From the NCBI GenBank assembly GCA_035300345.1, contig DATGVM010000022.1:27365-91364 (forward strand): a stretch of DNA of 64,000 nt. The letters run 5' to 3'. The position numbers and the translations under genes are program-made. Source of the stretch: Steroidobacteraceae bacterium (lineage in GTDB: Bacteria; Pseudomonadota; Gammaproteobacteria; Steroidobacterales; Steroidobacteraceae). The notes below the pieces were generated by a model that did not search any database, was not told the DNA's origin, and worked only from the letters and a program-made list of their open reading frames with translations. Positions 6,601 through 40,005 of the stretch are shown here, one piece after another (position 1 is the stretch's first letter; every line of letters starts with the position of its first letter).

Positions 6601-8286
6601 AGTCTGGCCTTTGCCGATCAGATTATGGCGATGACAAACGGCGAAGGTGTTGACGTGGTTCTGAATTCGCTCGCCGGTGAGGCTCTGCGGCGCAGCCTCG
6701 ACGTCCTAAAACCCTTTGGCCGTTTCCTTGAACTGGGGAAACGGGATTTCTTCGAAAACACGCCCATTGGACTGCGGCCGTTTAAGAACAATATCAGCTT
6801 CTTCGGCATCGATGCCGACCAATTGCTCATCGCACGTCCGGCACTGGCCGGTCGGCTGTTTCGTGAGGTCATGGCGCTGTTTCGGGAGAAAGTGCTGTTC
6901 CCACTGCCTTATCGACTGTTCCCGGCGACTAACATTGTCGATGCCTTCCGCACCATGCAGCAGGCACAACAAATCGGCAAAGTGATCGTCGGAATTGAAG
7001 GGGTGAGCGTCGCCATTGAAGACACGTCTGCCCGCGCAATTCCGGTTCGCTTTGAATCGCGTGCCCGCTGGCTCGTCACTGGGGGAATATCCGGCTTTGG
7101 CCTGGAATCAGCCCGCTGGCTTGCCGAGCGAGGCGTTGGCGATCTGGTGCTGGTGGGCAGGCGTGGCATGCGCACACCCGGCGCTACCGAAGCCGTGCGC
7201 ACCCTGGAGGCACTGGGGGCCCAAGTCAGTGTGATCGCCTGCGACGTCAATGATCGCAGCGCCGTGCAGTCGATGCTGAAAGAGATACGCAATTCGCGCA
7301 CGCCGCTGACGGGAGTGCTCCACGCCGCAATGGTGCTGGATGACGCACTTATCGGCAACCTGGATGCGCAAAGGCTGCGCAATGTGCTCGCGCCAAAGCT
7401 CCTCGGCGCCTGGCATTTGCATGAACTGACGCTCGATATACCGATTGAACACTTCGTGCTGTACTCCTCGATCACCACGATGATCGGCAATCTGGGACAG
7501 GCGAATTATGTGGCCGCCAATGCCTCCCTCGAGAGCCTCGCACTGCTGCGCCGGGCCGTCGGGCTCCCGGTCACATGCATTGGCTGGGGTCCGATCAGCG
7601 ACGCGGGCTTGCTGACGCGAAATGAGGCCGTCAAGGACGCTCTTGCACAGCGCCTCGGCGCCAGCTCGATGAGCGCGCGCGCCGCGCTGGCGTTGCTTGA
7701 TCGCTTACTGCCGCGCAGCACCGGGACCATCGCGGTGGGCAATTTCGACTGGCCCACGCTCGCACGTTTGCTGCCTTCGGCCAGGGCAGCGCGCTTTGAG
7801 TGGCTGCGCCGCCGTGCAGGGCCGACTGCTGATACGAGCGCGGTGAGCGATGATATTCGCGTTATGATCGCGGGCAAGACACGCGGGGAGGCCCTGCGCA
7901 TCGCCCAAGAGCTGGTCGTTCAGGAGGTCGCGCAAGTGCTGTGCGTTGCTCCTGACCGCGTCGATCCGCATCGCTCGGTGCACGACCTGGGAATGGATTC
8001 GCTGATGGCCGTGGAACTGGTTATGGGGCTGGAGAAGCGCTTTGGACTTGAGTTACCGGCCATGCTGCTTAACGAAGGCATTACCGTCGAAAAGGTCGCC
8101 GCGCGCGTGATAGACCGGCTTTTGCGCACTGATGAACCAGTCAAGGCGGAGGCAGGCGATCGGCTGGATATCGTGGCCGCCACTCTTGCGACGCAACACG
8201 GCGAGACCATGGCGGCTGACGATTTGGCCAAGACCCTCGAGCAGGCGCGCAGCCTGGAGCCCGGCAAGGTGCGGTTGATTCGATGA
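616..8286 (+). CDS. type I polyketide synthase, FAS-like KS-AT-DH-(MT-like)-ER-KR-ACP (RkpA/WcbR-like capsule lipid synthase)
   Basis: 2556-aa ORF. KS motifs IAIVGMAFRFPG, DTACSSSLVALHQA, HGTGT. AT GHSAGEVAAAW. DH HPLLG and LADHKVGDAVVLPGAAF. MT-like region RILEISAGAS. ER LIHGGAGGVGIAAIQ. KR WLVTGGISGFGLESARWLAERG. ACP LGMDSLMAVEL. No TE domain. Alternative in-frame GTG start at 658. Confidence 0.93.
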   Translation: MWAISPPLVVLWKLVSNSLIAIVGMAFRFPGDLAIERDLWRALRRGDDLVGRIGPERWATEVMQHPKRAEAGRSITYAAGVLSRIDEFDAGFFGISPREAAWLDPQQRLLLELTWEAMEAGGQVPSRLARSDCAVFVGISGVDYGMRAMDDFAALTAHSMTGNTLSIAANRLSYVFDLHGPSVAVDTACSSSLVALHQACNSLRTGEASTALVGGVNLLLHPYPFIGFTKASMLSASGRCRAFDAAADGYVRAEGGAVVVLKPLDKALADGDAIQAVILATGINTDGGRKTSITIPSGEGQVELLKEVLGRSGLSADEVDYVEAHGTGTAIGDPIEAAAIGEVYGRHAGRVQALPIGSIKTNLGHLESASGMAGLIKTILVLKNRALPPSLHWTTPNPHIDFAGLNLEVVTRLRSLVKPGRRPLAAAVNSFGFGGANAHVVLQEFRARRRSPRRIKASHPPLFLSARTPQALRDLAGRYAKLLKQMPSAYYDIAHGAAHRRERLERRLVLPSCSPSERDKRLGDFAKGATVPQVIVEDALAQPGKLAFVYSGNGAQWLGMGQRLLSESPRFAALLAELDERINTQAGFSILAELQADQKHSRFEDTTVAQPLLFAIQVALTILLRERGIEADAVAGHSAGEVAAAWASGALSLDQATTVICARSGAQGRTRGAGRMAAVGLPEVDARELIATEQLAGVELSGVNSPGNVTLSGNLDALQRLGAVLSQRNIFFRLLEFDYAFHSRAMNLIEDDLKARLADLRPESVSEPKFVSGVTGKMMPGAALGATYWWRNVREPVRFDRAMSALAELGCRVFVEIGPNAILQRYMSECLASASVNGRVLPTLRRSEDGTAGVEAVALRIQLLADATRLESYFTQPGRPVRLPNYPWQRERHWHPRTSEAYALIERTRVHPLLGWRLKDAAAAWENSLDPEFFPWLADHKVGDAVVLPGAAFAELALAASRAHFGGPLHECEELNILVPIVFDGEHARSVRFDLSVRDGSFQIQSRQRLSDDEWTLNAAGRLRLASGGVEPARAIDDPHGASDAVVIDRATHYRLTGLLGLNYGPSFQGLLRAEVRGQVLSASVQLPANVSETAHQFLIHPALLDVCFQSLVDFFHADIDPHRAVPVLPVKFGRLRYYSDAPVVRFRAALRRRNERSLLADFELLDASNRIVATVSDCRFRAAPMRRSDQVQPACWTIVPHLQPHASEQSRTDVAPSAQLAERLRAWFDREEPLLLRHAYFKSSLPLFEALAVSFARDAFQDLFAKRGGWVQRSLTHPESVEEACRPFFRWLGNMLRDEGLLVERSTGTWQLVATDLPSAQSIWRTLLRDCPASLPELVFAARVGRRLAALLTKASEAERLTEALQISHQAEALFQDSSSYLGTRLGVQQLLCSVAEQWPQHRRLRILEISAGASRVVQQVLDCFPEDRLDYVIAHPDEPIRARLQTEFSRRQCVRIANVSTDSLELTSDARLPDSFDVIVLRHWLHRTPHPVGVLAAARRKLALGGLLVLAERHPDLGADFVCGIDPRWWQESAHGEPISRLQPPAAWEAALAKQAYVDIEICREPASANLSEGAYILLAKRPAEEAVTVTEPACARWLLMCDGAAPWSLLGDRVQRLLESRGQRVLSVGAGATTEAVLAAARGTLGTIDHVVYMSGPVDSSLPPDDAPWHPMDSDGIVGALQLVQAVGRNPSPPRLWLVTAGGALVERLPDGVPGNSTQGALWGFGRVVMNEYPALECTLVDVDIDPASEEAAGRLHSELLQPDGEQEIMLGAHGRYVARMLGVADQASVEPGNKATRFRLDFHTPGRIRNLQWRPQPERPLTDEEIEIRVAATGLNFRDVMYLQGLLPDDAIEGGFAGASLGLEFAGVVNRVGRVGGEFSIGDSVMGFAPACFASHVITTAKAISHKPADWSFEAAATVPTVFFTVYYALKHLADLQAGERILIHGGAGGVGIAAIQFSMHLGAEVYATAGSDEKRDFVALLGADHVLDSRSLAFADQIMAMTNGEGVDVVLNSLAGEALRRSLDVLKPFGRFLELGKRDFFENTPIGLRPFKNNISFFGIDADQLLIARPALAGRLFREVMALFREKVLFPLPYRLFPATNIVDAFRTMQQAQQIGKVIVGIEGVSVAIEDTSARAIPVRFESRARWLVTGGISGFGLESARWLAERGVGDLVLVGRRGMRTPGATEAVRTLEALGAQVSVIACDVNDRSAVQSMLKEIRNSRTPLTGVLHAAMVLDDALIGNLDAQRLRNVLAPKLLGAWHLHELTLDIPIEHFVLYSSITTMIGNLGQANYVAANASLESLALLRRAVGLPVTCIGWGPISDAGLLTRNEAVKDALAQRLGASSMSARAALALLDRLLPRSTGTIAVGNFDWPTLARLLPSARAARFEWLRRRAGPTADTSAVSDDIRVMIAGKTRGEALRIAQELVVQEVAQVLCVAPDRVDPHRSVHDLGMDSLMAVELVMGLEKRFGLELPAMLLNEGITVEKVAARVIDRLLRTDEPVKAEAGDRLDIVAATLATQHGETMAADDLAKTLEQARSLEPGKVRLIR

Positions 8287-9617
8287 GCAGCAAGCGCTAC
8301 GGCCTGGTCGACAAGGCGCGCGACGAGCTCGTGCGGCGTTTTCTCGATCGCAAGAGCGCTGACCACGCCGTACATGCGCCACCTCAAGCTGCTCAGACGG
8401 GGAGCAAGTGGCTCAATATTCCGGAGGCTTACAGCCGCTTTGATCGCTTTCCCGGATACGAGAGACTCCTCGTGCCGCGGGTGGCTGCCGACCGGCTGGG
8501 CCTGGCCAACCCCTTTTTCAAGGCGCACGACGGTGTCGCCGGCGCAACCACCCTGATCGATGGGCGAAGCTACGTAAATTTCTCCTCGTATAACTATCTG
8601 GGGCTCGCAGGCCACCCGCGCGTCAACAAAGCGGCCACCGCCGCGATTGAGCGCTATGGCACTTCAGCCTCTGCCAGCCGCCTCGTGGCCGGGGAACGGC
8701 CAATTCAACGTGAGCTCGAAAAGGCACTAGCAGCCTTCTACGAAGTCGAAGATTGCGTAGTCTTCGTCAGCGGCCACGCGACCAACGTGACCACTATTGG
8801 TTATCTGTTTGGGCCGAAGGACCTTGTCGTACACGATAGCCTCATACACAACAGCGTGCTGGAAGGGATCAAGCTTTCCGGCGCCGCGCGCCGCTCATTT
8901 CCGCACAACGATACCGCCGCTCTCGACACGATTCTGAGCGAGATCCGCGGCCTGTTTGAGCGCGTACTCATCGTTGTCGAGGGACTGTACAGCATGGACG
9001 GCGACATCGCCGAGCTGCCTCGGCTAATCGACATCAAGCAGCGCCACAAGGCCTTCCTGATGGTCGACGAGGCGCATTCGCTTGGCGTGTTGGGTGAATC
9101 CGGCCATGGCATCCGCGAGCATTACGGCATTGCCGGCAAGGCAGTGGATATCTGGATGGGCACGCTCAGCAAGGCTCTGGCCGGCTGTGGCGGCTTTATC
9201 GCCGGCGAGCACGCACTGGTGGAGCATCTCAAGTACGCCGCCCCTGGGTTTGTGTACAGTGTCGGCCTGGCGCCACCACTGGCGGCCGCTTCTCTCGAGG
9301 CGCTGAAAATTATGATTGAAGAGCCGGAACGCACAAGGCGGCTGCACGAGCGAGCAAGGCATGCTCACGAGCTGGCGCGCGTGCGCGGCATCAATATTGG
9401 ACTGTCGCAAGGGTATGCGGTCATTCCAGCGATTGTCGGCAGCTCGCTCAAGGCTGCCAAGATCTCGAATCAGCTCTTCGAACGCGGCATAAACGTGCAG
9501 CCAATAGTGTATCCGGCGGTCGATGAGCGAGTCGCAAGGCTTCGATTTTTTGTCAGCACCATGCACACTGAAAAGCAGATTGCTTCCGCCATCGATGTGC
9601 TGGCCGGTCTGCTGTGA
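8283..9617 (+). CDS. PLP-dependent alpha-oxoamine synthase family acyltransferase (BioF/KBL/Spt-like; RkpG/WcbT-like)
   Basis: 444 aa. Motifs YNYLGL, VSGHATN, DEAHSLGVLG and the PLP-lysine motif GTLSKALAGCGGF. Its ATG overlaps the PKS stop codon (ATGA at 8283-8286). Confidence 0.9.
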   Translation: MSSKRYGLVDKARDELVRRFLDRKSADHAVHAPPQAAQTGSKWLNIPEAYSRFDRFPGYERLLVPRVAADRLGLANPFFKAHDGVAGATTLIDGRSYVNFSSYNYLGLAGHPRVNKAATAAIERYGTSASASRLVAGERPIQRELEKALAAFYEVEDCVVFVSGHATNVTTIGYLFGPKDLVVHDSLIHNSVLEGIKLSGAARRSFPHNDTAALDTILSEIRGLFERVLIVVEGLYSMDGDIAELPRLIDIKQRHKAFLMVDEAHSLGVLGESGHGIREHYGIAGKAVDIWMGTLSKALAGCGGFIAGEHALVEHLKYAAPGFVYSVGLAPPLAAASLEALKIMIEEPERTRRLHERARHAHELARVRGINIGLSQGYAVIPAIVGSSLKAAKISNQLFERGINVQPIVYPAVDERVARLRFFVSTMHTEKQIASAIDVLAGLL

Positions 9618-10753
9618 CTAATTCACTGAGCGAGATGCCTCAGCGACTGAGTGGCGTTTGGCGCTGGCTGCTGGGCCACCGACTCTTCCTGTATACGGTT
9701 GCTATTCCGACGGCACTTTCAATCCTCTATTTTGGACTTATTGCGTCGGATATTTATATTTCAGAATCCCGCTATATAGTCCGTAGCTCTGAACAACAGA
9801 GCAGCTCGGCACTCGGTTTGGTATTGAAGGACACGGGGTTGTCCCGCGCTCAGGACGATTCCTACTCTGTGGAGAATTTCATTCTCTCCCGCGATGCCCT
9901 GAGAGCGCTCGACGAGCAATTGCATCTGAAAGCTGCGTTTTCGGCACCGTCAGTCGATTTCATCAAGCGCTTCGCGAGTCTGGGCAGAAATGATGGGTTG
10001 GAAGAATTTGTCCTTTATTACCAGAACATGGTGGATGTACAGATTGAGTCGGATTCTTCAATTACCACCCTAACGACCCGTGCATACACTGCCGATATGG
10101 CTCGCACTATCAATGCGAGATTGCTTGATCTGGCCGAGAATCTGGTAAATCGACTCAACGAGCGCGCCAACCGCGACATGATCCGCTACGCGGCGGGCGA
10201 GGTCGCCCAGGCGGAAGCGAAGGCCAGAGAAACCAGCAGTGCCTTGGCGCAATACCGCAACCAGAATGGAGTCATCGACCCGGAGCATCAGTCCAGCATT
10301 CCTCTGGAGCGAATAGGCAAGCTGGAGGATCAGCGGATTGCCACAAAGGCTCAACTCGAAGTCCTTGAACAGTTCGCCCGAGATAACCCACAACTTCCCG
10401 TGCTGCGCCAGCAGGCAAAGCTACTTGACCAACAAATTGCCGCGGAGACCAGCAGTGTGGCCGGTACGGGCGGTCGTTCGTTGGCAGGTAAAGCAGCCGA
10501 ATACGAACACTTGGCATTGGACAAGGCTATTGCAGATAAGATGCTGGAAAGCGCCATGGGTACGCTAGCGCTGGCGCGTGATGAAGCACTACGCCAGCAG
10601 CTTTATCTTGAGCGAATCGTCCAACCTGGTTTGCCTGATAGGGCCATGGAGCCGCGTCGATTGAGAAACATCAGCGCGACCCTCCTATTAGGGCTGATCG
10701 TGTGGGGTGTGCTGTCGCTCACCGTGGCTGCCGTCAAAGAACACCGGGACTAA
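9614..10753 (+). CDS. kpsE: capsule polysaccharide export inner-membrane protein (KpsE/RkpR-like, PCP-3)
   Basis: 379 aa with an N-terminal TM (LFLYTVAIPTALSILYFGLIA), a long coiled periplasmic region and a C-terminal TM. It sits immediately upstream of kpsM/kpsT. The GTG start overlaps the upstream stop; an alternative ATG is at 9635. Confidence 0.8.
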   Translation: MTNSLSEMPQRLSGVWRWLLGHRLFLYTVAIPTALSILYFGLIASDIYISESRYIVRSSEQQSSSALGLVLKDTGLSRAQDDSYSVENFILSRDALRALDEQLHLKAAFSAPSVDFIKRFASLGRNDGLEEFVLYYQNMVDVQIESDSSITTLTTRAYTADMARTINARLLDLAENLVNRLNERANRDMIRYAAGEVAQAEAKARETSSALAQYRNQNGVIDPEHQSSIPLERIGKLEDQRIATKAQLEVLEQFARDNPQLPVLRQQAKLLDQQIAAETSSVAGTGGRSLAGKAAEYEHLALDKAIADKMLESAMGTLALARDEALRQQLYLERIVQPGLPDRAMEPRRLRNISATLLLGLIVWGVLSLTVAAVKEHRD

Positions 10754-10759
10754 CCGAGC

Positions 10760-11548
10760 ATGTCCGACGTGGCCAGCCTGATTCCTTCCGCGAAGATCCA
10801 GGGTCGAATTATCGGGGCATTGTTAAGGCGCGAGATTCTGACCCGCTACGGGCGCCACAACATCGGTTTTATGTGGTTGTTCGTCGAGCCGATGATGTTC
10901 ACCTCTGGGGTTCTGATCTTGTGGGCATCGCTCGGGCTTCATAAGGTTAGGCTGCCTATGGTCGCCTTCGCGCTCAGCGGTTACGGTACAGTTCTCTTGT
11001 GGCGCAATACCATCAATCGTTGCGGGGACGCGTTGGAGCCAAACCGGGCGCTTTTGCACCATCGCAATGTGCGTGTCATCGATTTATTTGCAGCGCGTGT
11101 AGTTCTTGAAATCGCCGGCGCATCGATGTCCCTGTTTATTCTTGAAGCGGCACTGACGGCTACCGGTTTGGTGACGGCCCCGGACGACGTCTTCAAGATG
11201 ATTATTGCTTGGGTGCTATTGGCGTGGTTTGCCGCAGACATGGCGCTGATTATTGGTTCGATCTCAACGCTCAGCGAATCCGCGGAGCGCGTCTGGCATG
11301 TACTGAGTTATTTGTTTCTGCCGTTGTCGGGGGCGTTCTTTATGGTCGGCTGGCTGCCGAAATATGCGCAGTCTTTGGTGCTCTGGATCCCGACAGTAAG
11401 CTGCACGGAACTACTGCGCGAAGGACTTTTCGGCGTCGGCGTAATTGCCCACTACAGGATTGGTTATCTCCTTGTGGTCAATACAGCACTGATGCTGCCG
11501 GGCTTGCTTCTGATCAAGTACATCGCCGCGCGGGTGGAAGGCGAATGA
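10760..11548 (+). CDS. kpsM: capsule ABC transporter permease (ABC-2 type)
   Basis: 262 aa, multi-TM ABC-2 permease-like sequence ([18 protein letters not shown]). Its stop overlaps the kpsT start. Confidence 0.85.
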
Positions 11549-12195
11549 TCAGCCTTAGGGGGGTGAGCAAACAGTACCGCGTAAGAAGCGGTATGTACAC
11601 TGTGTTTGAGAATTTGGATTTGCGTATTGAGCCCGGAGAGAAAGTGGGAATCCTGGGCCGAAATGGCGCCGGAAAATCAACTTTGATTCGTTTGATTAGC
11701 GGCGCCGAGTTGCCTACGCGAGGGAGAGTAGAACGCGAAATGTCGGTCTCGTGGCCGTTGGCTTTCGGTGGGGCCTTTCAGGGTAGCCTGACCGGCGTAG
11801 ACAATATTCGGTTCATTTGCCGCGTTTACAACGCCGATATCGCGGTCGCCATCCCCTATGTCGAGGCATTCTCTGAATTGGGCGTCTACCTTCGGGAGCC
11901 CGTCAAGAACTATTCTTCCGGCATGCGTGCACGCCTGGCGTTTGCCATTTCTATGGCTGTGGAATTTGATTGTTTCCTTATTGATGAAGTAATTGCCGTA
12001 GGCGACCATCGTTTTCACCAAAAGTGTCAACATGAGTTGTTTGAAAAGCGCCAGGACCGGGCGATGGTTATCGTTTCCCACGACGCACGCAACATCCGCG
12101 AACATTGCAAGCGCGCCAGCGTTTTCCATCAGGGAACGCTGCGCCACTTTACTGATGTGGATGGGGCTTACAATTTTTATAACGAGAACAGTTAG
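11545..12195 (+). CDS. kpsT: capsule ABC transporter ATP-binding protein
   Basis: The start [11 protein letters not shown] at 11545 overlaps the kpsM stop. Walker [10 protein letters not shown], signature [12 protein letters not shown], Walker B FLIDE. The track ORF 11209.. is an in-frame upstream extension inside kpsM. Confidence 0.9.
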
Positions 12196-13825: not shown

Positions 13826-16800
13826 ATGAACTGGCGTGATGGCGTGTCGAGATTGCTTGCGAGGATATTTGCGGCGGAACTGGTCCGCCTGTCTTACCGC
13901 GGACTGTTGGCGCGAGAGCCCGATGCGGATGGTCTGGACGTCTACGCATCGAAGCTTCGAGAGTCAGGCGAGTTTGCCGACCTGCTTGGGCAATTGTGCG
14001 AGAGCGAAGAGCGCTGGTTAAAGACGTTCTCAGCTCGGGCGCCGGAACTTATTCGGGCGCTGCATCTTGGATTGCTGAGTCGTGAGCCAGATCCAGAAGC
14101 ACTGCGGGATCAAGTGCCTCGATTGGGTGCGCCGCACGATCTGGCTGCACTACTTTCGGAGATGGCGCGCTCGGACGAACACTGGAACAGGACGTTAATT
14201 GGCAGAGCCCCTGAGCTGGTGCGGGTGGTATACCAGGGACTGTTGAATCGGGAGCCGGGCACCGGGGACCTGCGTCGGCATTCGGAGCAGCTGGCTGAGA
14301 CCCATGACCTGGAACCGCTGCTGCTAGAAATTGCCCGGTCGGACGAACACTGGAAGAAAATGGTCATTGCCCGAGCCCCTGAATTGGTGCGGGCCTTATT
14401 CCAGGGACTGCTAAATCGGGAGCCATACGCCGGGGACCTGCAACGGTTTGCGGAGCAGTTGGCAGAAACATATGACTTGGCGCCGGTGCTAGAGCAAATG
14501 GCGCGCTCAGACGAGCAGTGGCAGAGAACGCTGGAAATGCGGGCCAATGACTTGGTGCGGGCGCTATATCGGGGTCTGCTGCAACGGGAGCCTGAAGCTG
14601 ACGCTTTGCAGGCCTATGCCGCCAGGCTCATTCAGACGCACGATCTGGTGCCGCTACTGTCAGAGATTGTGCGCTCTGACGAGCGGTGGCATAAGTCGCT
14701 GGAGGTACGGGCCCCCGACCTAGTGCAAGCATTGTATCGAGGGCTACTGCAGCGCGACGCTGAACCCGAAGCGTTGGAAGCGTATGCCGCCAAGCTAATG
14801 CAGACACACGACCTAACGCCGCTACTGGCAGGGATTTCGCGCTCGGACGAAAGGTGGCAGAGGGCACTTGAGGCTCGAGCCCCCGAGCTGGTAAGCGCCC
14901 TTTATCGAGGGTTGTTGCAGCGTGAGCCAGAGTCCAAGGCGCTGGATGACTGTGTCGCCAAACTCCACGCGACACACGATCTGACGCCGTTGCTGGCATC
15001 CCTCGCCCGCTCAGACGAGTTGTGGGGGCAGCTCTTCTCAGCCCGTGCGCCGGAGCTTGTGGAGACCATTTACAAATCCCTCCTTGAGCGTGATCCCGAC
15101 GCATCGGGCTTTCAGTATTACACGGGTGTAATTGTTGAATCGAATGGTGTCAGCAAGGTCTTGACAAGGATCATCACTTCCCCAGAGTTCAATAAATTGC
15201 AGCAGCGGGTGGCTGTGGTGTTCCTGCACATCCAGAAGACGGCGGGCACTTCAATGCAGGGAATGCTCAAGGAGGCTTTTGGTGCGAACGCGTACGTCGA
15301 GCACGCCGATTCACTTGCCACATATGAGCGCAAGGACTTATCGGCGTTTTCCGTATTTGCCGGACATTTCAACCATGACAGCCTCGTGCACATACCTTGC
15401 AGACGTCTCTCAACGTATACATTCGTCAGGGAACCGAAAGAGCGACTGACCTCGCTCTACTATTTTTGGCGCGCTCACGAGCCAACGGCTCCCACCTGGT
15501 CCGAGGGGATGAAGATTGCCAATGAATTACTAATCGAAGAGTTTTTCGGGAGAGATGAATCTACGACGAATTCGCTTTTGTGGAATCACATGACCTGGGC
15601 CATTATGGGGCACCAGCAATGGGCCACGTGGCGCTTGACTTTGAATGGGGTCACAGAATCAGAAGCTTTGGAGCTATTGTCTGGCCAAATCCGACCTGCG
15701 ATTCGCAAGCGATTGCGCGAGTTCGTCTTTGTTGGGCTGCAGGAAGATTACGAACGATCCGTCGTCATGCTTTGTGAGGTTCTTGGGTGGCCTAGATTCA
15801 AAAGCGTGAGGTCTGACCAGAGCCTCGATCGCCTTACCAAAAAAAATCCTCATTTCAAAAAAACCTTAGAGAAGCAGCCGAGGTCCGAGCATCTGGATAC
15901 GTTGCTTGACAGGTTTGTCCAACTCGACAATATCGTTTACGAGGAGTCCAAGCTGCTCTATGTGGAGCAGGTGGCGCTGTACGGTGACGGCGCAATGTCA
16001 CGCCTTGGAGCGCACCTTCGCGGTGGAGACGCAGGCTTCTCGACGACGGATCTGGATGAGCGAAAGGTAGTATTTCTTCACGTGCCCAGGACCGGTGGGA
16101 CTGCGCTGCGCAGTCTTTTGCTTCCGCATTTCGCAAAGGACTCAGTGTGCCCTGAGCGGTTTAACGACTTGCGTCATTATGCGTGCGGGGAACTAGTGCG
16201 ATACCGTTTGTTTTCCGGCCATTTCGATCTTCCCTCCATCAAGTTGATTCCCGGCCGAAGGATAGTGGTTACGCTGTTACGAGAGCCTGTTGCACGGCTC
16301 GTTTCGCTATACCATTTTCTTCGGACACCTGGGTCAGGGGCCGCCGAACGGCAGAATCGCGAACTCGCGAGGTTGGCGAGTGCGTGTTCACTTGTCGAGT
16401 TCTTTAAGACTGAAGAGGTTCGTTCTCACCACCGAATCAACAATTCAATGACGAGGGTACTTACACAAGTTGTGGATGGCAGGAAGAGGGAGACAAGCGC
16501 GGTTGCGGCGGTTGCTGCCGGCGATGCAGTACCGGATGTCGCTCAGGCGCTGCGGGAGCTCAATGCACTGGACGCGTTCGGGATAATGGAGCGATATGAG
16601 GAGTCGACACGACTGATATTGTCAGCAATTGGCTTGCCCACTCCTCAGGAGACGGAAGAAAGCCAGGCACAGGGGGTGCTTGCAGCGCGGGAACGCGCAA
16701 ATCGGCGGATCGAGCACGAACCATTGCCCGTGGACATCAGAGATGTAGTTGGGGAGCTTGTGGTGGCGGATTTGCAGCTCTACCAACACGCCACACGGAT

Positions 16801-16900
16801 ATTTGAGAATCGCCTTCAATCCCGGAGCGCACCGGTGCCGAAGCGTAGGAGAGGATCCCCGAGTCGGCGAATGGCGTTCAAGGCAAGCCGGGAGACCTAA
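13826..16900 (+). CDS. multidomain protein: 8 tandem DUF4214-like repeats plus two PAPS-type sulfotransferase domains
   Basis: ORF 13802..16900 opens with TTG; the ATG at 13826 is preceded by GGAAG. Eight 56-aa repeats match (A-P-E/D-L-V-x-A-L-Y-x-G-L-L-x-R-E-P-x..-H-D-L-x-P-L-L-..-R-S-D-E-x-W). Two domains follow, each with a PAPS 5'-phosphosulfate loop (VVFLHIQKTAGTS; VVFLHVPRTGGTA) and a 3'-phosphate motif (VREPKERLTSLYYFW; LREPVARLVSLYHF). Confidence 0.8.
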   Translation: MNWRDGVSRLLARIFAAELVRLSYRGLLAREPDADGLDVYASKLRESGEFADLLGQLCESEERWLKTFSARAPELIRALHLGLLSREPDPEALRDQVPRLGAPHDLAALLSEMARSDEHWNRTLIGRAPELVRVVYQGLLNREPGTGDLRRHSEQLAETHDLEPLLLEIARSDEHWKKMVIARAPELVRALFQGLLNREPYAGDLQRFAEQLAETYDLAPVLEQMARSDEQWQRTLEMRANDLVRALYRGLLQREPEADALQAYAARLIQTHDLVPLLSEIVRSDERWHKSLEVRAPDLVQALYRGLLQRDAEPEALEAYAAKLMQTHDLTPLLAGISRSDERWQRALEARAPELVSALYRGLLQREPESKALDDCVAKLHATHDLTPLLASLARSDELWGQLFSARAPELVETIYKSLLERDPDASGFQYYTGVIVESNGVSKVLTRIITSPEFNKLQQRVAVVFLHIQKTAGTSMQGMLKEAFGANAYVEHADSLATYERKDLSAFSVFAGHFNHDSLVHIPCRRLSTYTFVREPKERLTSLYYFWRAHEPTAPTWSEGMKIANELLIEEFFGRDESTTNSLLWNHMTWAIMGHQQWATWRLTLNGVTESEALELLSGQIRPAIRKRLREFVFVGLQEDYERSVVMLCEVLGWPRFKSVRSDQSLDRLTKKNPHFKKTLEKQPRSEHLDTLLDRFVQLDNIVYEESKLLYVEQVALYGDGAMSRLGAHLRGGDAGFSTTDLDERKVVFLHVPRTGGTALRSLLLPHFAKDSVCPERFNDLRHYACGELVRYRLFSGHFDLPSIKLIPGRRIVVTLLREPVARLVSLYHFLRTPGSGAAERQNRELARLASACSLVEFFKTEEVRSHHRINNSMTRVLTQVVDGRKRETSAVAAVAAGDAVPDVAQALRELNALDAFGIMERYEESTRLILSAIGLPTPQETEESQAQGVLAARERANRRIEHEPLPVDIRDVVGELVVADLQLYQHATRIFENRLQSRSAPVPKRRRGSPSRRMAFKASRET
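13871..15206 (+). repeat. in-frame tandem coding repeat, 8 units of 168 nt (56 aa), DUF4214-like
   Basis: Unit boundaries read directly: 13871, 14039, 14207, 14375, 14543, 14711, 14879, 15047. Units are diverged at nucleotide level but clearly alignable, e.g. gcccctgagctggtgcggg at 14207 and gcccctgaattggtgcggg at 14375. Confidence 0.85.
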
Positions 16901-17093: not shown

Positions 17094-18338
17094 TTGAAGG
17101 TGCGGCTTAAAAAGTGGCTTGCTGACATCGCATTTAGGGTCCTTGTACGGCTCTGCGCGACGAAAGTCGTGCGCGCATCGTATTGCGGTGTGCTGTCGCG
17201 AGAGGCTGATGCTGCTGGACTGGCCGCGTCCGCGAATGCCCTACGAGGTACGATGGACATTGCCGCGTTGCTCCGGACATTGAGCCTATCGGACGAGCAC
17301 TGGGGTAAGGTATTCGATTCCCGGTCTTTTGAGATCGTAAGAAGTGCTTACCGAGGACTACTCGCGAGGGATGCCGACCCTGAGGGATTGCAGAGCTATT
17401 CCGCTCTGCTGAGGTTAAATGGGAACCTTGAAGAAATGCTGGACAGGATGGTCCATTCACAGGAGTTCATGCGCATTCAGTCGGCCCGCGTGGCAACCTT
17501 GGCGGCAGAGAGTCGGAGTAGCTCCAACCCTAAACATACCTTTGATAGCGAGACCATTGCGTTCTTGCACATTCAGAAGACCGCTGGCAGCACAGTCAAT
17601 CGGGCACTCGCCATCGCATATGGGAGAGGAAACATCTGCTTTCCACCCGACAATGGAAGCAGTATGTTCAAGTTGTCGGCCAGTGAATTGTCACAATATA
17701 AGGGCTACGCCGGCCACTTTAATTTCGACGAACTCGCTTATATACCGCGCAAGAGAGTGTCTGTTTTGTGCTTCGTACGGAACCCAAAGGACCGGTTGCT
17801 GTCCCTCTACTACTACTGGAAGGCACATCAACCTGGGCACCCAGACTTCAGCATGGGTGCAATGATTGCAAATGCGCTGCCTCTTGGAGAATTTGTGCGC
17901 GATAGGCGAGTGACAAAAATGCCCGAAGTGTGGAATCACATGACGTGGGCGATTATGGGCGAGAGAATGTGGTCTAGGTGGCAGGCGGAACTGGCTGAGG
18001 CCCCTAATCGTGCGGCGTCACTGGCGTCGATGCGCGACGCAATTCGCGGACGATTGCAAGAACTTGCCTTTGTGGGCTTGCAGGAAGACTTCGATAAGTC
18101 ACTTGACGTGCTATTTCGAATTCTCCGAAAGCAAAGGCCAGTGATTGGAGGAAGATTCAATTCCCTCGAATCTCGTATGCTAACGGACCCGCACTTCAAG
18201 AAGCACATTGCAAGAGAGGAGGTAACAGAAGAATGTGCCGATGACTTGGAGCGATTGCTCGAGTTGGATACGATGCTCTACGAGGAGGCAAGGCTAATCA
18301 ATGCGAGTCAATGCGCGGAATATGCACCCGCCAATTGA
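17094..18338 (+). CDS. DUF4214-like (2 repeats) plus sulfotransferase domain protein
   Basis: 414 aa. Two N-terminal repeats (VVRASYCGVLSREADAAGL...SDEHWGKV; IVRSAYRGLLARDADPEGL...HSQEFMRI). They are followed by IAFLHIQKTAGSTV and VRNPKDRLLSLYYYW, and WNHMTWAIMG is shared with the first domain of the upstream protein. TTG start preceded by GGGAAGAGG. Confidence 0.8.
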   Translation: MKVRLKKWLADIAFRVLVRLCATKVVRASYCGVLSREADAAGLAASANALRGTMDIAALLRTLSLSDEHWGKVFDSRSFEIVRSAYRGLLARDADPEGLQSYSALLRLNGNLEEMLDRMVHSQEFMRIQSARVATLAAESRSSSNPKHTFDSETIAFLHIQKTAGSTVNRALAIAYGRGNICFPPDNGSSMFKLSASELSQYKGYAGHFNFDELAYIPRKRVSVLCFVRNPKDRLLSLYYYWKAHQPGHPDFSMGAMIANALPLGEFVRDRRVTKMPEVWNHMTWAIMGERMWSRWQAELAEAPNRAASLASMRDAIRGRLQELAFVGLQEDFDKSLDVLFRILRKQRPVIGGRFNSLESRMLTDPHFKKHIAREEVTEECADDLERLLELDTMLYEEARLINASQCAEYAPAN

Positions 18339-18353
18339 ATGGAGGAGGACTCA

Positions 18354-19685
18354 ATGAATCATTACCCCGTTAGGCTATTGGCGGCTCGCAAAGCGCCCGC
18401 GCCCTTGGTCTGTTGTGTAATGGGGTGGTTTGCCATTTTGATATGCTGCGCTACGCCTTTGGAGGCGTCAGATGGTCTCGACGGTAAACTCGTTGTGGGA
18501 TACCAAGGATGGTTCGGGTGTCCGAATGATTTCGAGGCGAACAAGGCGTGGCAGCATTGGTTCCTTAGAGGTGTTCGTTCGGAGTTTATGACGGTGGATT
18601 TATTGCCTTCGGTCGGTCAAATTGATTCAAAGGATCTGTGCGAGACGGGAATACCACGTGCAGACGGGCAGGGGACAATTAAGCTGTTTTCGTCCCAAAA
18701 CCCCAAGATCGTTTTCGCCCATTTTCGCTGGATGCGAGACGCCGAGATTGATGGTGCTGCGACGCAACGCTTTGTGAGCGAAATCGGGGACCCAGTAAAA
18801 AGGCGGCGCAGCGATCACGTCCTAACCAACGTTCGCGCCGCCGCAGAAGGCAACAATAGGGTATTTTTTGTAGTCTTTGACGTCTCTGGTGAGAAAGCTG
18901 AGTCTGTGGTCAGTGACGTCCGACAGGACTGGCGGCATCTTGTAAACGATCTCAAGCTGACTGATAGCCCAGCATACATGCGTGATCACGGGAAACCCGT
19001 TCTGGAGCTATGGGGGTTCGGGTTTAGGACTCGAGTGGGTGCGCCAGAGGAAGTTGGTGCGTTAATTCGCGACTTGAAGACTGGGCAAGACGGGCTTGCG
19101 GCGGTAACACTCATCGGCGGTGTGCCCGCCCGCTGGCGAACCCTTGAGGTAGACGCCAAGCCAGAGGCTGGTTGGGCCAAGGTCTATCGAAGTTACGATG
19201 TAATCAGTCCTTGGTGGGTTGGGCGGTTTAATGATGAGGTTAGCGCGACCGCGTTTACGCGCGATGTCGTTGTGCCGGATCTCGCAGAAGCACGACGCGC
19301 GGGCGTGCGTTATATGCCGGTAATCTTCCCGGGGTTTTCTGCCTATAACCAACAATTAAATCATGGCAATCTTCACGATGCAGTCCTTGATCGAATTCCA
19401 CGCCGCTGCGGAAAGTTTCTTTGGTGGCAGGTATCAAGTCTGCTTTCCCAGCACGTCGACATGCTTTATGCGGCGATGTTTGATGAGGCCGACGAGGGTA
19501 CCGCTCTCTTCCCGATGGAAACTCAGCCGGACAAACTCCCAGCGGGCTCACATATGGTTTACTTAAACCAGGATGGGTGCTCACTACCAGAAGATTGGTA
19601 TTTGCGCGTCGTAGGAAGAGCTGCGCAGTATATTCATCGGGGAGAAACGCCCCCCGTAAAGCTCAGCGACGTAGTGTCTCCGTGA
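18354..19685 (+). CDS. secreted or membrane-anchored glycoside-hydrolase-like protein (family not confidently recognised)
   Basis: The ATG at 18354 follows GGAGGAGG; the track start is 18339. Hydrophobic N-terminus (VMGWFAILICCATPLEA). Motifs VVGYQGWFGCPND, ISPWWVGRF, YMPVIFPGFS and AMFDEADEGTALFP recall GH99-like TIM-barrel enzymes, but I cannot assign a family without a search. Confidence 0.6.
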   Translation: MNHYPVRLLAARKAPAPLVCCVMGWFAILICCATPLEASDGLDGKLVVGYQGWFGCPNDFEANKAWQHWFLRGVRSEFMTVDLLPSVGQIDSKDLCETGIPRADGQGTIKLFSSQNPKIVFAHFRWMRDAEIDGAATQRFVSEIGDPVKRRRSDHVLTNVRAAAEGNNRVFFVVFDVSGEKAESVVSDVRQDWRHLVNDLKLTDSPAYMRDHGKPVLELWGFGFRTRVGAPEEVGALIRDLKTGQDGLAAVTLIGGVPARWRTLEVDAKPEAGWAKVYRSYDVISPWWVGRFNDEVSATAFTRDVVVPDLAEARRAGVRYMPVIFPGFSAYNQQLNHGNLHDAVLDRIPRRCGKFLWWQVSSLLSQHVDMLYAAMFDEADEGTALFPMETQPDKLPAGSHMVYLNQDGCSLPEDWYLRVVGRAAQYIHRGETPPVKLSDVVSP

Positions 19686-19896
19686 CTGCCCGTCGCGAAT
19701 CGGAAAGCAAGCCGTGCACGCATGGGCGTCCGCTTGCCAACACGTTTTTCCTGTGACGCCCGCCGCGCTATTCAAGGCGCTTCGTTTGTTGTGGGACACC
19801 TTGGATTCGTAGAGTAACCGGCGAGAGAATCTTCTTGGGTCAACAAAGGTCCGCAGATCAGGTCGCAGTGCAATTGCGAGCATCGGCGTGGGTGAC

Positions 19897-20967
19897 ATGA
19901 TGTTAACGGAAGATGATGTTATCTGGTGCTATCGCGCGATACTTGGCAGGCCCCCAGAGTCCGCGGCAGTCGTTCAATCGCATGTGTCGTCGGGCAAGAC
20001 CTTTCGCACACTGGTCTGGACGTTTCTCAAATCTCAAGAGTATCGGAGCAAGACGTCAGTCCCGGCATTTGTGCCGCTAGACCGGGAAGAAATGGATATG
20101 GACATCACGGCGTCCTCGACTGATATGCGGTTGCTCATTGATCGCGTCCGCAATGCGTGGACGCATCTGGGCCAAGTACGCCCTCATTATTCTGTCCTGA
20201 CCAATCGGAAATACCTTCCGGAGTCCTTAGACGCCGCATCAATTGAGGATTTCTATTCGAGCGGAGTGGGCGAGGTGTCGGCAATCGCCGCGATATTGAG
20301 GCGATTTGGAAAACCCGAAGTGGGATCTCAAGTCTGCGTTGAATATGGCTGCGGGCTCGGCCGTGTAACAGTTCCTTTGGCGAAGAAATTCAAGAGCGTG
20401 CATGCGTACGACATATCGGGGAACCACCTCGCTCTGGCTAGAAAACGTGCCTTTGATGCCGGTGTGCACAATATAGAATTCCACTTGTGCTCCGCTAAAG
20501 TCGTTATTGAGAATCTCGAGCGTTGCGATGTCCTTTACTCGCGGATCGTATATCAGCATAACCCTCCGCCAATTATTCGCGAATTGATCGGAGCAGCTTT
20601 AAGATCATTGCGTCCAGGTGGTATCGCAATCTTTCAAGTGCCAACTTACTGGGGAGGATACTCGTTTCGAATCAAGGAATATTTAGCGCAGCCGGCAGCG
20701 CTCGACTTGGAAATGCATTGCATTCCACAGGGTGTTGTTCTCTCTATCATTGCTGAATCGCACTGCAAGTTACTGGAGATCCGGGAGGACGGTTCAACCG
20801 GGCACAGCCAAGCGATTTCAAACACCTTTGTCGTCCAGCGACTTGCCGGAAGATCGCGGCCGTGGCGATGGGCTTCCGACGTGGCTGTAGCGGCTCATCG
20901 AATTTATCAGCACTTCCGGAGGACGGTCTTTACGCGTAGGAGGAAAAACGCGGCTATATCTTCCTAG
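19897..20967 (+). CDS. class I SAM-dependent methyltransferase with DUF4214-like N-terminal segment
   Basis: N-terminus DDVIWCYRAILGRPPESAAVVQSHVSSGKTFRTLVWTFLKSQEY. SAM motif I VCVEYGCGLGRVTVPLA; post-I HAYDIS. The track start is GTG at 19888. Confidence 0.75.
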   Translation: MMLTEDDVIWCYRAILGRPPESAAVVQSHVSSGKTFRTLVWTFLKSQEYRSKTSVPAFVPLDREEMDMDITASSTDMRLLIDRVRNAWTHLGQVRPHYSVLTNRKYLPESLDAASIEDFYSSGVGEVSAIAAILRRFGKPEVGSQVCVEYGCGLGRVTVPLAKKFKSVHAYDISGNHLALARKRAFDAGVHNIEFHLCSAKVVIENLERCDVLYSRIVYQHNPPPIIRELIGAALRSLRPGGIAIFQVPTYWGGYSFRIKEYLAQPAALDLEMHCIPQGVVLSIIAESHCKLLEIREDGSTGHSQAISNTFVVQRLAGRSRPWRWASDVAVAAHRIYQHFRRTVFTRRRKNAAISS

Positions 20968-21175: not shown

Positions 21176-22243
21176 ATGGCTACAAATCCATACTCCGCCC
21201 TAGCCGATAGCGCATATTGGTCCCGAGCGGTAGCGCGTGTATTACCTATCGATGTCGATCCTGTAGGAACCCCGCCCTTCAGCATATCCAAATCGGATCG
21301 AATAGCCACGGTTGGCAGTTGTTTTGCGCAACATATTTCCAAGGCTCTTATGGCGGACGGGTACGCGTTCTTGATTACGGAAAAGGGAGAGTTTGAAAGG
21401 AACTACGAGGTCTACCCGGCACGCTTCGGAAATATCTATAGCACTCGACAACTATTGCAGCTTTTTAGTCGTGCTTACGGCCTCTTTCTACCACAGGACG
21501 AAACATGGGTTCGCCCCGACGGCGCTCTTGTTGATCCCTTTAGACCCCAGATAGAGCCCGTTGGCTTCCCTTCGATCGACGCCCTCGTGGCGGACCGCCG
21601 TGATCACTTGGCAGCTGTGCGTCGGATGTTCGAACTTTGTGACGTACTAATTTTCACACTGGGCCTGACAGAGGTGTGGCGGTCCGTCGTGGACGGGGCG
21701 GTGGTTCCACTCGCTCCAGGCGTTGTCGCTGAGTCGACCACAGCCGCTGAATACGAATTTGCAAACCTTGAAGTCTCCGACATGGTTGGCGATCTTTGTA
21801 CAACGATTGATAAGTTACGGACTGTAAACACCAGCGCGCGTGTAGTCCTAACGGTGTCCCCTGTTCCACTTGTTGCGACCTATGAGAACCGCCACGTGCT
21901 ACTGTCGACCATTTACAGCAAGTCAGCTCTAAGGGTCGTCGCAGAAATGGTCTGCCGGCGTGTCCAGGGAGTTTCCTACTTCCCGTCATACGAAATTATT
22001 ACAGGCCACCATAACCGGTACGCCTATTTCGAGCCCGACTTGCGCAGCGTTTCAAGCGAAGGCGTGGCTCAAGTTATGCGTTTGTTTAAGAGGCACTACC
22101 TAAGAGACGATGTCCAAACGCAGACAGGTCTTCCAAAGGAGCACGGTCCAGATACCACGGCCCAAGAAATGGCCATCGAGCAACGTTTGCGACAAGCGAA
22201 AGACATCCTATGTGATGAAGAGGAACTTGACCCAAGGAATTAG
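21176..22243 (+). CDS. GSCFA family protein
   Basis: 355 aa. Contains the eponymous motif IATVGSCFAQHI near the N-terminus. RBS-like GGAAGGA upstream. Confidence 0.75.
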   Translation: MATNPYSALADSAYWSRAVARVLPIDVDPVGTPPFSISKSDRIATVGSCFAQHISKALMADGYAFLITEKGEFERNYEVYPARFGNIYSTRQLLQLFSRAYGLFLPQDETWVRPDGALVDPFRPQIEPVGFPSIDALVADRRDHLAAVRRMFELCDVLIFTLGLTEVWRSVVDGAVVPLAPGVVAESTTAAEYEFANLEVSDMVGDLCTTIDKLRTVNTSARVVLTVSPVPLVATYENRHVLLSTIYSKSALRVVAEMVCRRVQGVSYFPSYEIITGHHNRYAYFEPDLRSVSSEGVAQVMRLFKRHYLRDDVQTQTGLPKEHGPDTTAQEMAIEQRLRQAKDILCDEEELDPRN

Positions 22244-22257
22244 CGCAGGCGTCACAA

Positions 22258-23154
22258 GTGAATGTCGCGATCGTTGGTAATTGTCAGGTCCATGGCTTTG
22301 GCGCTGCGCTGTCGGGGATGTGCCCGGGCGTGAGCGTGGAGATTCATGAAATTGTGCAGGTCACGCGAACCGGGACAGCGAGTGCAGTCGCCGCGAAATT
22401 GAAGACGGCCGACGTGGTGTTTACTAACGCGGCCGAGGAGATGCGGAGTCTTGTGCCACTTGAGAGGTTGAGTGGAGCAGGAGTACGAACGATATCTTTC
22501 CCTGCGATAGAATTTACGGGGTTTCAGCCGGATATGGCTCGTCTAATTGATTCCTCTGCAAAGCCAACAGCCGGTCCGTTGTGCCCCTGCCACTCTCTAA
22601 TCATTGCCGCTTCCTATTCTCTCGGCTTTTCTCCACAGCGAACTGCGCTGCTTTTCAACTCGTACGTTTATGCCTCGTTGGGTTACTTTGCGGAATTTGG
22701 ACCGGCCCGCAGAGCCCTACTCTCAAAGGCATCAAGTCTCGGATATGACCTTTCTGAGAGCTTCGCGCAATGGCTTCGCGAAGGATCATTCATGCATACG
22801 ATCAACCATCCACACATTCGAGTTCTAGGAACACTAGCCGCCATGGCCGCCCAAAAAGCGGGCTTCCAGGCCGATGTGGCGCTTTGTGAGTCGCCCGGAG
22901 ACAGCTTAGCTCTGTCGTTTTGTTGGCCTGTGTATCCCGAGCTGGCGGAACGTCTTTCCGTTGACGGTGGGCTCTCGTTTGAGAGAAATGCTTTTCTGGC
23001 TCGCCAGCTAAATGTTTCAAGACGATTGTCGCTCGAAGAGTTTATTACGCAGTCGTTTGCGGCGTATGCAGTGGGCGGCCAGGACCTAGTCGCGCTGTCA
23101 ACGCGCGTCGCACACACTGCCTCGGTATTACGGGTCATTTGTGCCCGTTCGTAG
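22258..23154 (+). CDS. WcbI-like capsule biosynthesis protein (tentative)
   Basis: 298 aa with a GTG start. The N-terminal MNVAIVGNCQVHG resembles the GNCQ start of WcbI-type domains as I recall them. Assignment rests on that motif and capsule context only. Confidence 0.5.
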   Translation: MNVAIVGNCQVHGFGAALSGMCPGVSVEIHEIVQVTRTGTASAVAAKLKTADVVFTNAAEEMRSLVPLERLSGAGVRTISFPAIEFTGFQPDMARLIDSSAKPTAGPLCPCHSLIIAASYSLGFSPQRTALLFNSYVYASLGYFAEFGPARRALLSKASSLGYDLSESFAQWLREGSFMHTINHPHIRVLGTLAAMAAQKAGFQADVALCESPGDSLALSFCWPVYPELAERLSVDGGLSFERNAFLARQLNVSRRLSLEEFITQSFAAYAVGGQDLVALSTRVAHTASVLRVICARS

Positions 23155-23394
23155 GTTTCATATATCGACGCGCGTCTCGCTGCGGTCGCATTTCTCGTGC
23201 CCCGCATAAGCACCGCCACGTGATTCTTACGGGCCAGTGTTTTGATGATCAGGATCAAGTTAAAATGCTCCAGCCTGTTCTGATGAGCGGAAAATGACAT
23301 GTTTGGCGGCGATAGCAGGCTATTCGGGCGGTCTACATCGGCGACCGCCGCGTTCCTGGTAGCCTTAGCGTCCCGCAATCCTACGCGGCAGAGA

Positions 23395-24344: not shown

Positions 24345-24535
24345 GGAATGCAGTGCTCGTTGCCCCAATGCTGCAGCTGCCGCGGTGCGGATCGCCCGAG
24401 CAGATGAGTTTCATCTGATCGCATCAAACGGAGCCATCGATGCGCCAAGCCGTGAACCTTGATAATGCCGTTGACGCCAACTGGCGGAAAACGGCAATGT
24501 CCGCTTTAATGTGAATGGGATCAGGGGAGAACTAA

Positions 24536-29108: not shown

Positions 29109-29133
29109 GCTGGCTATCGGTCCTGAATCGGGA

Positions 29134-33401: not shown

Positions 33402-33486
<85 letters not shown>

Positions 33487-39844: not shown

Positions 39845-39920
39845 GGGTGCTTAGCTCAGCTGGTAGAGCGTCGCCCTTACAAGGCGAATGTCGTGGGTTC
39901 GATCCCCTCAGCACCCACCA
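39845..39920 (+). tRNA. tRNA-Val (anticodon TAC)
   Basis: GGGTGCTTAGCTCAGCTGGTAGAGC..., anticodon loop CTTACAA, T-loop TTCGATC, acceptor AGCACCC + A + CCA. There is one U-U mismatch in the T stem. Confidence 0.9.
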
Positions 39921-39928
39921 CTCACTGC

Positions 39929-40005
39929 GGAGCGGTAGTTCAGTTGGTTAGAATACCGGCCTGTCACGCCGGGGGTCGCGGGTTCGAGTCCCGTCCGCTC
40001 CGCCA
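39929..40005 (+). tRNA. tRNA-Asp (anticodon GTC)
   Basis: GGAGCGGTAGTTCAGTTGGTTAGAATACCGGCCTGTCACGCCGGGGGTCGCGGGTTCGAGTCCCGTCCGCTCCGCCA is nearly identical to the canonical bacterial tRNA-Asp. Confidence 0.95.

Follow-up and report, generated by a model that had tools for sequence, protein, structure and literature searches.

The DUF4214 array and its sulfotransferase domains

We analysed a 64,000-nucleotide stretch of DNA from a Steroidobacteraceae bacterium (contig DATGVM010000022.1; hereafter the window), in which one gene encodes a 1024-residue protein composed of an N-terminal array of eight DUF4214 units followed by two sulfotransferase domains (ST1 and ST2). The likely start codon is the ATG at 13826, the stop codon ends at 16900, and the array covers residues 16 to 463, the N-terminal 45% of the product. 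The window protein was identical to NCBI HLQ12670.1 (a 'DUF4214 domain-containing protein' from a Steroidobacteraceae metagenome-assembled genome) and to P0040. Because the identical 1024-residue product was encoded on 11 soil-metagenome contigs, each independently assembled, the eight-unit array is not an assembly artefact. The parts of the gene are as follows (ORF, open reading frame; HMM, hidden Markov model; TRF, Tandem Repeats Finder; AF2, AlphaFold2; pLDDT, predicted local distance difference test; PSB, phosphosulfate-binding).

13826..16900, +, gene for the 1024-residue protein with eight DUF4214 units and a double sulfotransferase (ORF)
13826..13870, +, N-terminal cap helix of 15 residues (MNWRDGVSRLLARIF); predicted by AF2 as a helix at residues 3-14 and resembling the fourth (last) helix of a unit
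13871..14038, +, unit 1, divergent (unit translation and unit HMM)
14039..14206, +, unit 2 (unit translation and unit HMM)
14207..14374, +, unit 3, 71% identical in nucleotides to unit 4
14375..14542, +, unit 4 (unit HMM)
14543..14710, +, unit 5, 72% identical in nucleotides to unit 6 (TRF pair 5/6)
14711..14878, +, unit 6 (TRF pair 5/6)
14879..15046, +, unit 7 (unit HMM)
15047..15214, +, unit 8, canonical DUF4214 (SPEF, no Trp); best Pfam stretch
15215..15991, +, ST1, 5'-PSB loop FLHIQKTAGTS (Pfam Sulfotransfer_2, Foldseek)
15992..16036, +, low-confidence linker between the two catalytic domains (pLDDT <50 at residues 724-738)
16058..16825, +, ST2, loop FLHVPRTGGT
16826..16897, +, basic C-terminal tail, net +7 (KRRRGSPSRRMAFKASRET); last 24 residues, low model confidence

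Translated in frame, 13871-15214 gave eight units of 168 nucleotides (56 residues) with zero indels, and the unit HMM recovered all eight of them (E 1e-24 to 1e-30), which bears out the eight phased starts listed in the original prediction, made from the DNA letters of the window. The unit motif given there was also present, with spacers of x(15) and x(7) instead of the x(13-14) and x(6) that had been proposed. The consensus of the units was APELVRALYRGLLxREPxAxALxxYAxxLxETHDLxPLLxxIARSDExWxxxLxAR, with eight alignment columns invariant across all units (A1, L4, L12, L13, R15, L39, S45, and E47). The repeats had been described as DUF4214-like. In the Pfam search that was run on them, DUF4214 (PF13946) scored 128.5 bits against a gathering cut-off of 23.2 (E 9.6e-38, 7 stretches), and the family signature LLxRxPD...SxEF was found as LLERDPD...SPEF in unit 8 and as LLxREP...(R/E)S(D/E)ExW in units 1 to 7. 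By HMM score and by signature in a short all-helical module the array thus belongs to DUF4214, and not to an unrelated, already characterised repeat class. An assignment to TPR or Sel1 repeats was rejected, as no such family was among the Pfam matches at E<=1. The stretch that encodes the cap helix was conserved across the family as well (consensus MxxxxxxxRLxxRxCAA).

The internal units form a DUF4214 sub-type (THDL...RSDExW) with a strict 56-residue period, and His, Arg, and Trp residues are conserved in each of them. Units 1 and especially 8 were divergent from the rest; the Trp of 'SDExW' was found in units 1 to 7 and was missing from the last unit, both here and in relatives. The array as a whole is acidic (net -15, pI 5.4). 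Neighbouring units were 40 to 72% identical in DNA and 23 to 70% identical in protein, pairs 3/4 and 5/6 being the closest, and TRF detected pair 5/6 only. Third-codon-position identity was 0.62 for units 3/4 and 0.50 for units 5/6, exceeding the 0.30 to 0.46 of the other neighbouring pairs, which shows that genuine nucleotide homology persists. With unit identities of only 40 to 72% and a synonymous divergence (dS) of at least 0.85, a hypermutable contingency repeat could be rejected as an explanation. The HMM E-values, the signs of purifying selection on the units and the conserved homologues led us to reject a chance or artefactual ORF as well.

The fusion to sulfotransferases within a capsule locus, as originally proposed, was confirmed by two stretches matching Pfam Sulfotransfer_2 (PF03567; 40.7 bits versus a cut-off of 22) and by the Kps-type genes around the array gene. 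In Foldseek searches the catalytic domains matched heparan sulfate 2-O- and 6-O-sulfotransferases, with an E value of 9e-5 to the 2-O-sulfotransferase 4ndz. Fold and loop for binding 3'-phosphoadenosine 5'-phosphosulfate (PAPS) match in both C-terminal domains, at about 17% identity; the animal enzymes, in contrast, are Golgi-resident and lack a DUF4214 array. ST1 was 45 to 59% identical across the family. The 5'-phosphosulfate-binding loop with the catalytic Lys (xKTxGT/S) is kept in ST1 and deviates in ST2, where residue R755 (16088-16090) is an Arg in place of the Lys (PKTGGT/PKSGGT) of the orthologues P0003, P0004, P0007, P0010, and P0015; judged from this substitution, ST2 activity may be reduced or altered in the window lineage. 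Many family members, though not the closest orthologues with two sulfotransferase domains, likewise have an Arg/Lys-rich C-terminus (+5 to +8), and such a tail could be a contact for membrane or polyanion. No hydrophobic or transmembrane segment was found in the window protein (maximum KD19 = 1.14). Since sulfotransferases need PAPS, the array protein should be cytoplasmic; a membrane or secreted protein was rejected, there being no hydrophobic segment and PAPS-dependent chemistry being cytoplasmic.

AF2 models built with an alignment of homologues had a mean pLDDT of 78.5 for the whole protein and 84.8 for the array alone, with four helices per unit of approximately 13, 14, 8, and 10 residues. 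Helix 4 continued into helix 1 of the next unit at three of the seven junctions. The predicted template modelling score was low (0.36 to 0.40) alongside the high pLDDT, a pattern typical of, and here fitting, an elongated repeat protein; we infer the rod shape and the length of the array from this pattern. The loss of the Trp exactly in the last unit suggests a role for this residue in packing against the following unit. A coiled coil was rejected, as the AF2 helices span 8 to 24 residues, are split by loops and number four per unit, with no long coiled coil. When the array model was run through Foldseek, phycobilisome linker domains were the only putative structural relatives in the PDB: chain 8imk_1 was matched with a probability of 0.99 but an E value of 6.6e-3, and 3nph, 7sc8_BK, and 7ext with probabilities of 0.5 to 0.75, all over approximately 110 to 120 columns and with low TM-scores. 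One phycobilisome linker domain (PF00427) covers about two units. The window array scored 20.5 bits for PF00427, below the cut-off of 28.7, but relatives of the array do exceed this cut-off, and matches to PF00427 were found in 38 of 66 members of the array family (best E 2.7e-54). A sequence search of the PDB with the array returned no solved relative and no DUF4214 structure.

Unit number and catalytic partners across relatives

The original prediction had held that DUF4214 modules usually occur once or twice per protein, which would make an array of eight exceptional. This did not stand. When the eight-unit profile was scored against 1.84 billion representative proteins, 8551 matched at an E value of 1e-3, 1370 at 1e-10, and 121 at 1e-30, and the best 150 matches carried 2 to 13 units each (median 4) with a modal spacing of exactly 56 residues; over 100 representative proteins had 3 to 13 units. 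Because such a search favours multi-copy proteins, its counts do not describe how copy number is distributed over DUF4214 proteins at large. Spacing was 55 to 57 residues in 292 of 568 unit spacings, and the array was N-terminal in 72 of 100 long multi-unit proteins. The eight-unit array is thus at the upper end of a common architecture and not an exception to it.

Copy number was also compared among orthologues, as had been suggested, and was not invariant, ranging from 1 to 13 units. Proteins with the ST1+ST2 body differed as follows, and relatives with a single sulfotransferase domain carried 4 to 13 units.

P0007: 1 unit, ST1+ST2 body, N-terminus complete
P0010: 2 units, ST1+ST2 body
P0003: 4 units, ST1+ST2 body, locus syntenic with the window
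P0004: at least 4 units, ST1+ST2 body, N-terminally truncated
Window protein: 8 units, ST1+ST2 body

Internal units were 54% identical within a protein and 40% identical between proteins, in agreement with the amplification in situ that had been proposed, and unit 8 was 52% identical to the last unit of P0003 versus 32% to any unit of its own protein. Sequence comparison thus identifies unit 8 as the positional orthologue of the last unit of relatives, probably a fixed joint to the catalytic domain, and the internal units as lineage-specific expansions. Together, these identities and the orthology of the last unit indicate that units were gained and lost in place while the last one stayed fixed. 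Between units, dS was 0.85 to 2.8, so that the duplications are old and not recent, and the ratio of nonsynonymous to synonymous divergence (dN/dS) was 0.14 to 0.30, from which it follows that the copies were kept by purifying selection.

Two relatives appeared to carry seven units. P0001 (968 residues) matched the window protein at 964 of 968 positions and lacked exactly 56 residues, leaving a hybrid unit 3/4, and P0041 had cleanly lost unit 3, with a junction unlike that of P0001. Both come from 'SRC' read-set accessions, which we take to be protein-level (Plass) assemblies, prone to chimeras within repeats. No nucleotide contigs encoding either seven-unit variant were found, and a scan of metagenome-contig DNA for the seven-unit junction gave no match but was uninformative, as the positive-control pattern, an exact 26-nucleotide piece of the window, was also unmatched even though JGI contigs carry the identical gene. 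Units 3 and 4 share no exact in-register run longer than 12 nucleotides, which speaks against a collapse during nucleotide assembly, though it leaves room for a chimera formed at the protein level. These unverified strain-level variants may be real population polymorphism or assembly chimeras and are not used as evidence here.

In a census of 66 multi-unit proteins, all 66 matched DUF4214. Fused domains were mainly Sulfotransfer_2 in 13, polysaccharide pyruvyl transferase in 11, and CDP-glycerol glycerophosphotransferase in 6, with single cases of GT90, WcbI, FkbM methyltransferase, GDSL, and hexapeptide transferase, all of them polysaccharide-building or -decorating activities; a few singletons had unrelated domains (e.g., NlpC/P60, VgrG3-like, LRR, or SH3). 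Across relatives the partners of the array were nearly all polysaccharide-decorating enzymes, namely sulfo-, pyruvyl-, glycerophospho-, methyl-, or acetyltransferases. A scan of genome contigs with the ST1 alignment found the unit sub-type in 4 of 79 loci, the window's own genome not being among the matches. In P0002 (1694 residues; locus L008/L093), four sulfotransferase domains each stand behind one to three DUF4214 units, a domain order that suggests 'last unit plus sulfotransferase' as a duplicating module.

The capsule locus and its conserved layout

The array gene lies in an ABC-transporter-dependent, group 2-like Kps-type capsule locus, the other genes of which are listed below.

616-9617, head of the locus, 2556-residue type I polyketide synthase (PKS; KS-AT-DH-MT-ER-KR-ACP) and BioF/serine-palmitoyltransferase-like acyltransferase
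9635-10753, +, KpsE-like
10760-11548, +, KpsM
11545-12195, +, KpsT, 216 residues
12204-13766, +, GT4 glycosyltransferase, 520 residues
17100..18338, +, paralogue with two DUF4214 units (~17157-17489) and one ST1-like sulfotransferase domain
18339-19685, +, GH99-like protein, 448 residues, with a hydrophobic N-terminal segment (signal peptide or anchor)
19888-20967, +, methyltransferase
21176-22243, +, GSCFA
22258-23154, +, WcbI
24536-25282, +, FkbM methyltransferase
25329-26522, +, KpsD-like exporter
26906-28054, +, second GT4
28041-29108, +, Capsule_synth
29074-29784, +, hydrolase
31080-32084, +, epimerase
32085-33359, +, KpsS

Matches to TIGR01010 KpsE (E 1e-99), KpsM (E 4.8e-20), KpsS (E 1.4e-58), and the polysaccharide export protein NF011658 (E 5.8e-38) all scored below the NCBIfam equivalog cut-offs, so these assignments are at the family level and not to exact orthologues. 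The locus has two Capsule_synth proteins, one of them KpsS-like. The pair of PKS and BioF-like genes, which also heads the syntenic locus L087, resembles WcbR/WcbT of Burkholderia and RkpA/RkpG of Sinorhizobium, and by analogy may make an unusual lipid anchor. For the paralogue, gene callers differ in placing the start at 17100 or 17253, the later start cutting the first unit. The match of the 448-residue protein to GH99 (endo-alpha-mannosidase-like) was weak and below the Pfam cut-off; in L087, L090, L091, L092, and L093, the gene immediately behind that of the array enzyme likewise encodes a protein of similar size (417 to 443 residues) that belongs to no clear family. Between the WcbI and FkbM genes, 23155-24535 (~1.4 kb) held no convincing ORF, only short overlapping ones, one of 126 residues being called in one assembly, and had no Rfam match; this segment may be a decayed gene or a regulatory or recombination junction.

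G+C content was 53 to 56% in the central ~10-26 kb of the locus compared with 65 to 69% further downstream in the window, and the low value of this central, serotype-specific block is consistent with its horizontal exchange. A tRNA gene at 33402-33483 lies 43 bp past the KpsS-like gene and directly before tig and clpP, so that the capsule locus ends at a tRNA, a common island boundary. Two further tRNAs are found near 39.9 kb (39845-40002).

Layout was compared among the window and loci L086-L088 and L091-L093. In every one of these the gene order was KpsE-like, KpsM, KpsT, a GT4 of 518 to 580 residues, often a methyltransferase, the array enzyme, a protein of ~420 to 448 residues that fits no clear family, KpsD, a second GT4, and Capsule_synth proteins (KpsS/C). 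The domain behind the array was a sulfotransferase in the window, L086, L087, L088, and L093, a glycerophosphotransferase in L091, and a pyruvyl transferase in L092. The locus of P0003 ran PKS, BioF-like, KpsE/M/T, GT4, methyltransferase, array enzyme, a ~438-residue protein, KpsD, GT4, Capsule_synth, epimerase, and Capsule_synth. Several DUF4214-bearing enzymes can share a locus (two in the window, three in L007, two in L008, and two in L086). Since this order is maintained while catalytic domains are swapped, it is the array that stays constant and the chemistry that varies. This layout is the strongest clue to function, and comparison of the loci suggests that the array links exchangeable chemistry either to a constant machine or to the constant product of that machine.

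Possible functions of the array

That the array acts as a scaffold, a ruler or a multivalent binding element, as was first proposed, is plausible, and the further idea that it spaces sulfotransferases along a polymer is speculation. The reading that we favour, tentatively, is that it serves as a rigid, acidic solenoid adaptor or spacer by which decorating enzymes dock on a conserved assembly line through protein-protein contacts. The eight units would form one continuous, rigid, acidic alpha-helical solenoid without linkers, two units corresponding to approximately one phycobilisome-linker domain, and this solenoid would have no catalytic role. The arm would dock the two cytoplasmic PAPS-dependent sulfotransferase domains on the line of GT4 polymerase, KpsMT/E/D, and KpsS/C; the last unit would be the fixed joint to the catalytic domain, and the internal units a lineage-specific, expandable spacer, the number of which would set the reach of the arm, the count of docking contacts or both. 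Rigidity, docking and the identity of the partners are presumed in this proposal. It is supported by the strict 56-residue period, without linkers or indels in the window protein and found family-wide, by the helix continuity at junctions together with the Trp pattern, by the finding that phycobilisome linkers, which are protein-protein assembly modules, are the only putative structural and sequence relatives, by the sharing of one locus by several DUF4214 enzymes, and by the retention of the array across catalytic swaps with its units kept by selection. The acidic character of the array also makes it less likely that it binds an anionic polymer or membrane by charge.

In phycobilisome linkers (PF00427; ApcE, CpcC/CpcG, and the multi-REP linkers of Gloeobacterales, e.g., chain 8imk_1), to one domain of which two units align, tandem domains join stacked protein discs; ApcE, a linker with several tandem REP domains, organises cores of 2 to 5 allophycocyanin cylinders (10.1101/2025.04.28.650843). 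The window array differs from these in being sub-threshold for PF00427, in its fusion to enzymes and in its host, a non-photosynthetic gammaproteobacterium, and the window showed no phycobiliprotein genes. A helical repeat fused to a capsule-building enzyme is also found in TagF-like group 2 capsule polymerases, in the form of TPR domains (reportedly the subject of Litschko et al. 2018, mBio, and Cifuente et al. 2023, Nat Chem Biol) that are thought to mediate oligomerisation and scaffolding, and this TagF-like domain (PF04464) is the fusion partner in some relatives of the array. The window unit has 56 residues and four helices, whereas a TPR has 34 residues and two helices, and it gave no TPR/Sel1 Pfam signal.

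Several points weigh against docking by a long arm. The docking partner is hypothetical, and the rod geometry is a prediction. The existence of complete orthologues with one or two units (P0007 and P0010) implies that a long arm is dispensable for basic function. A preprint proposes O-antigen binding by a secreted RTX-DUF4214 protein (10.64898/2026.09.02.748959), which would favour a glycan-binding role for the domain, and a conserved backbone polymer as ligand would explain the conserved layout equally well.

Such a ligand is central to the main rival explanation, which we consider possible though unlikely, in which the array is a multivalent glycan clamp: each unit would bind a single repeat of the backbone as the conserved GT4 produces it, while it is still neutral, so that the chain is held for processive sulfation, and copy number would tune avidity or the minimum chain length recognised. 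The conserved layout would imply a conserved backbone, explaining why a conserved binding module sits on interchangeable decorating domains; a strict period would suit a periodic ligand, and the conserved His, Arg, and Trp of each internal unit would fit ligand contact. However, the Trp is missing exactly where no unit follows, which suggests packing rather than ligand contact, the array is acidic, and the homologous phycobilisome linker binds proteins. All-helical glycan-binding modules are, to our knowledge, uncommon, which also counts against a clamp. DUF4214 is also found on secreted RTX/S-layer-type proteins. In line with the original statement that no function is established for this domain, a literature search gave only one 2026 preprint, in which O-antigen binding is proposed for Psh, a secreted RTX-DUF4214 protein of Pseudomonas putida, but the placing of the binding on the DUF4214 part rests on modelling (10.64898/2026.09.02.748959). 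Psh shares with the window protein the Pfam family, a helical module of ~56 to 70 residues, the LLxRxPD...SxEF signature and a tie to surface-glycan biology; in contrast to Psh, the window array has eight units at the N-terminus of a cytoplasmic enzyme, with the internal sub-type at its strict 56-residue period.

Improbable, in our estimate, is a molecular ruler, in which the length of the solenoid would fix the distance from anchor to active site, sulfate being added as a cap or at set spacing, and would set chain length or sulfation pattern like the coiled coils of WbdD and WbbB. In keeping with a ruler, the units come in whole numbers without indels, are probably rigid and number 1 to 13 depending on the orthologue. 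Export relies on an ABC transporter, and next to the array enzyme stand a GT4 polymerase and a methyltransferase of its own, an arrangement also known from WbdA/WbdD (PMC3482155, PMC11231755). ApcE, with its several tandem domains, organises cores of 2 to 5 cylinders (10.1101/2025.04.28.650843). However, KpsT has 216 residues, without a cap-binding C-terminal domain, the role of sulfate as a chain terminator and the effect on chain length are drawn from analogy, the array is not a coiled coil, and orthologues with one unit would have no ruler. WbdD of Escherichia coli O9a and WbbB of Klebsiella O12 likewise have a non-catalytic, elongated helical element on a glycan-modifying enzyme of an ABC-transporter-dependent pathway, with discrete length steps (PMC3482155, PMC11231755). 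The window element, in contrast, is an N-terminal solenoid of four-helix repeats and not a coiled coil. The DUF4214 solenoid would then be a new, non-coiled-coil class of copy-number-tunable ruler or spacer, an evolutionary cousin of the phycobilisome linkers, a proposition that we also regard as improbable. If it were true, the number of 56-residue units (1 to 13 in nature) would determine how long capsule chains become or how far apart sulfate, pyruvate, or glycerol-phosphate groups are placed, and such rulers would act in a widespread Kps-type assembly line of soil Proteobacteria.

We likewise give little credence to a largely neutral expansion, in which the last unit alone would matter (for folding or as a lid) and the internal units would be tolerated duplications from unequal recombination, their number being without specific function. 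In its favour, the last unit keeps its position whereas internal units are replaced over time, functional-looking orthologues have only one or two units, and copy number has no visible correlation to locus content. Against it, internal units are held at a dN/dS of 0.14 to 0.30 even with synonymous sites almost saturated, hundreds of proteins keep the same period and unit boundaries free of indels, and many lineages have retained arrays, attached to more than one class of enzyme.

The window protein is typical of its family: it has already been annotated, and its architecture is widespread though uncharacterised. The new contribution is a comparative one, in that array and locus layout stay constant while unit number and chemistry vary. 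The large DUF4214 family is without a demonstrated function, and the locus gives a clean comparative setting in which to approach it. Whole-unit variation between orthologues makes that function directly testable, whether it is docking, glycan binding, or length measurement, and the answer would bear on how bacteria control the patterns of sulfation, pyruvylation and related decorations, at present poorly understood, on polysaccharides exported by ABC transporters.

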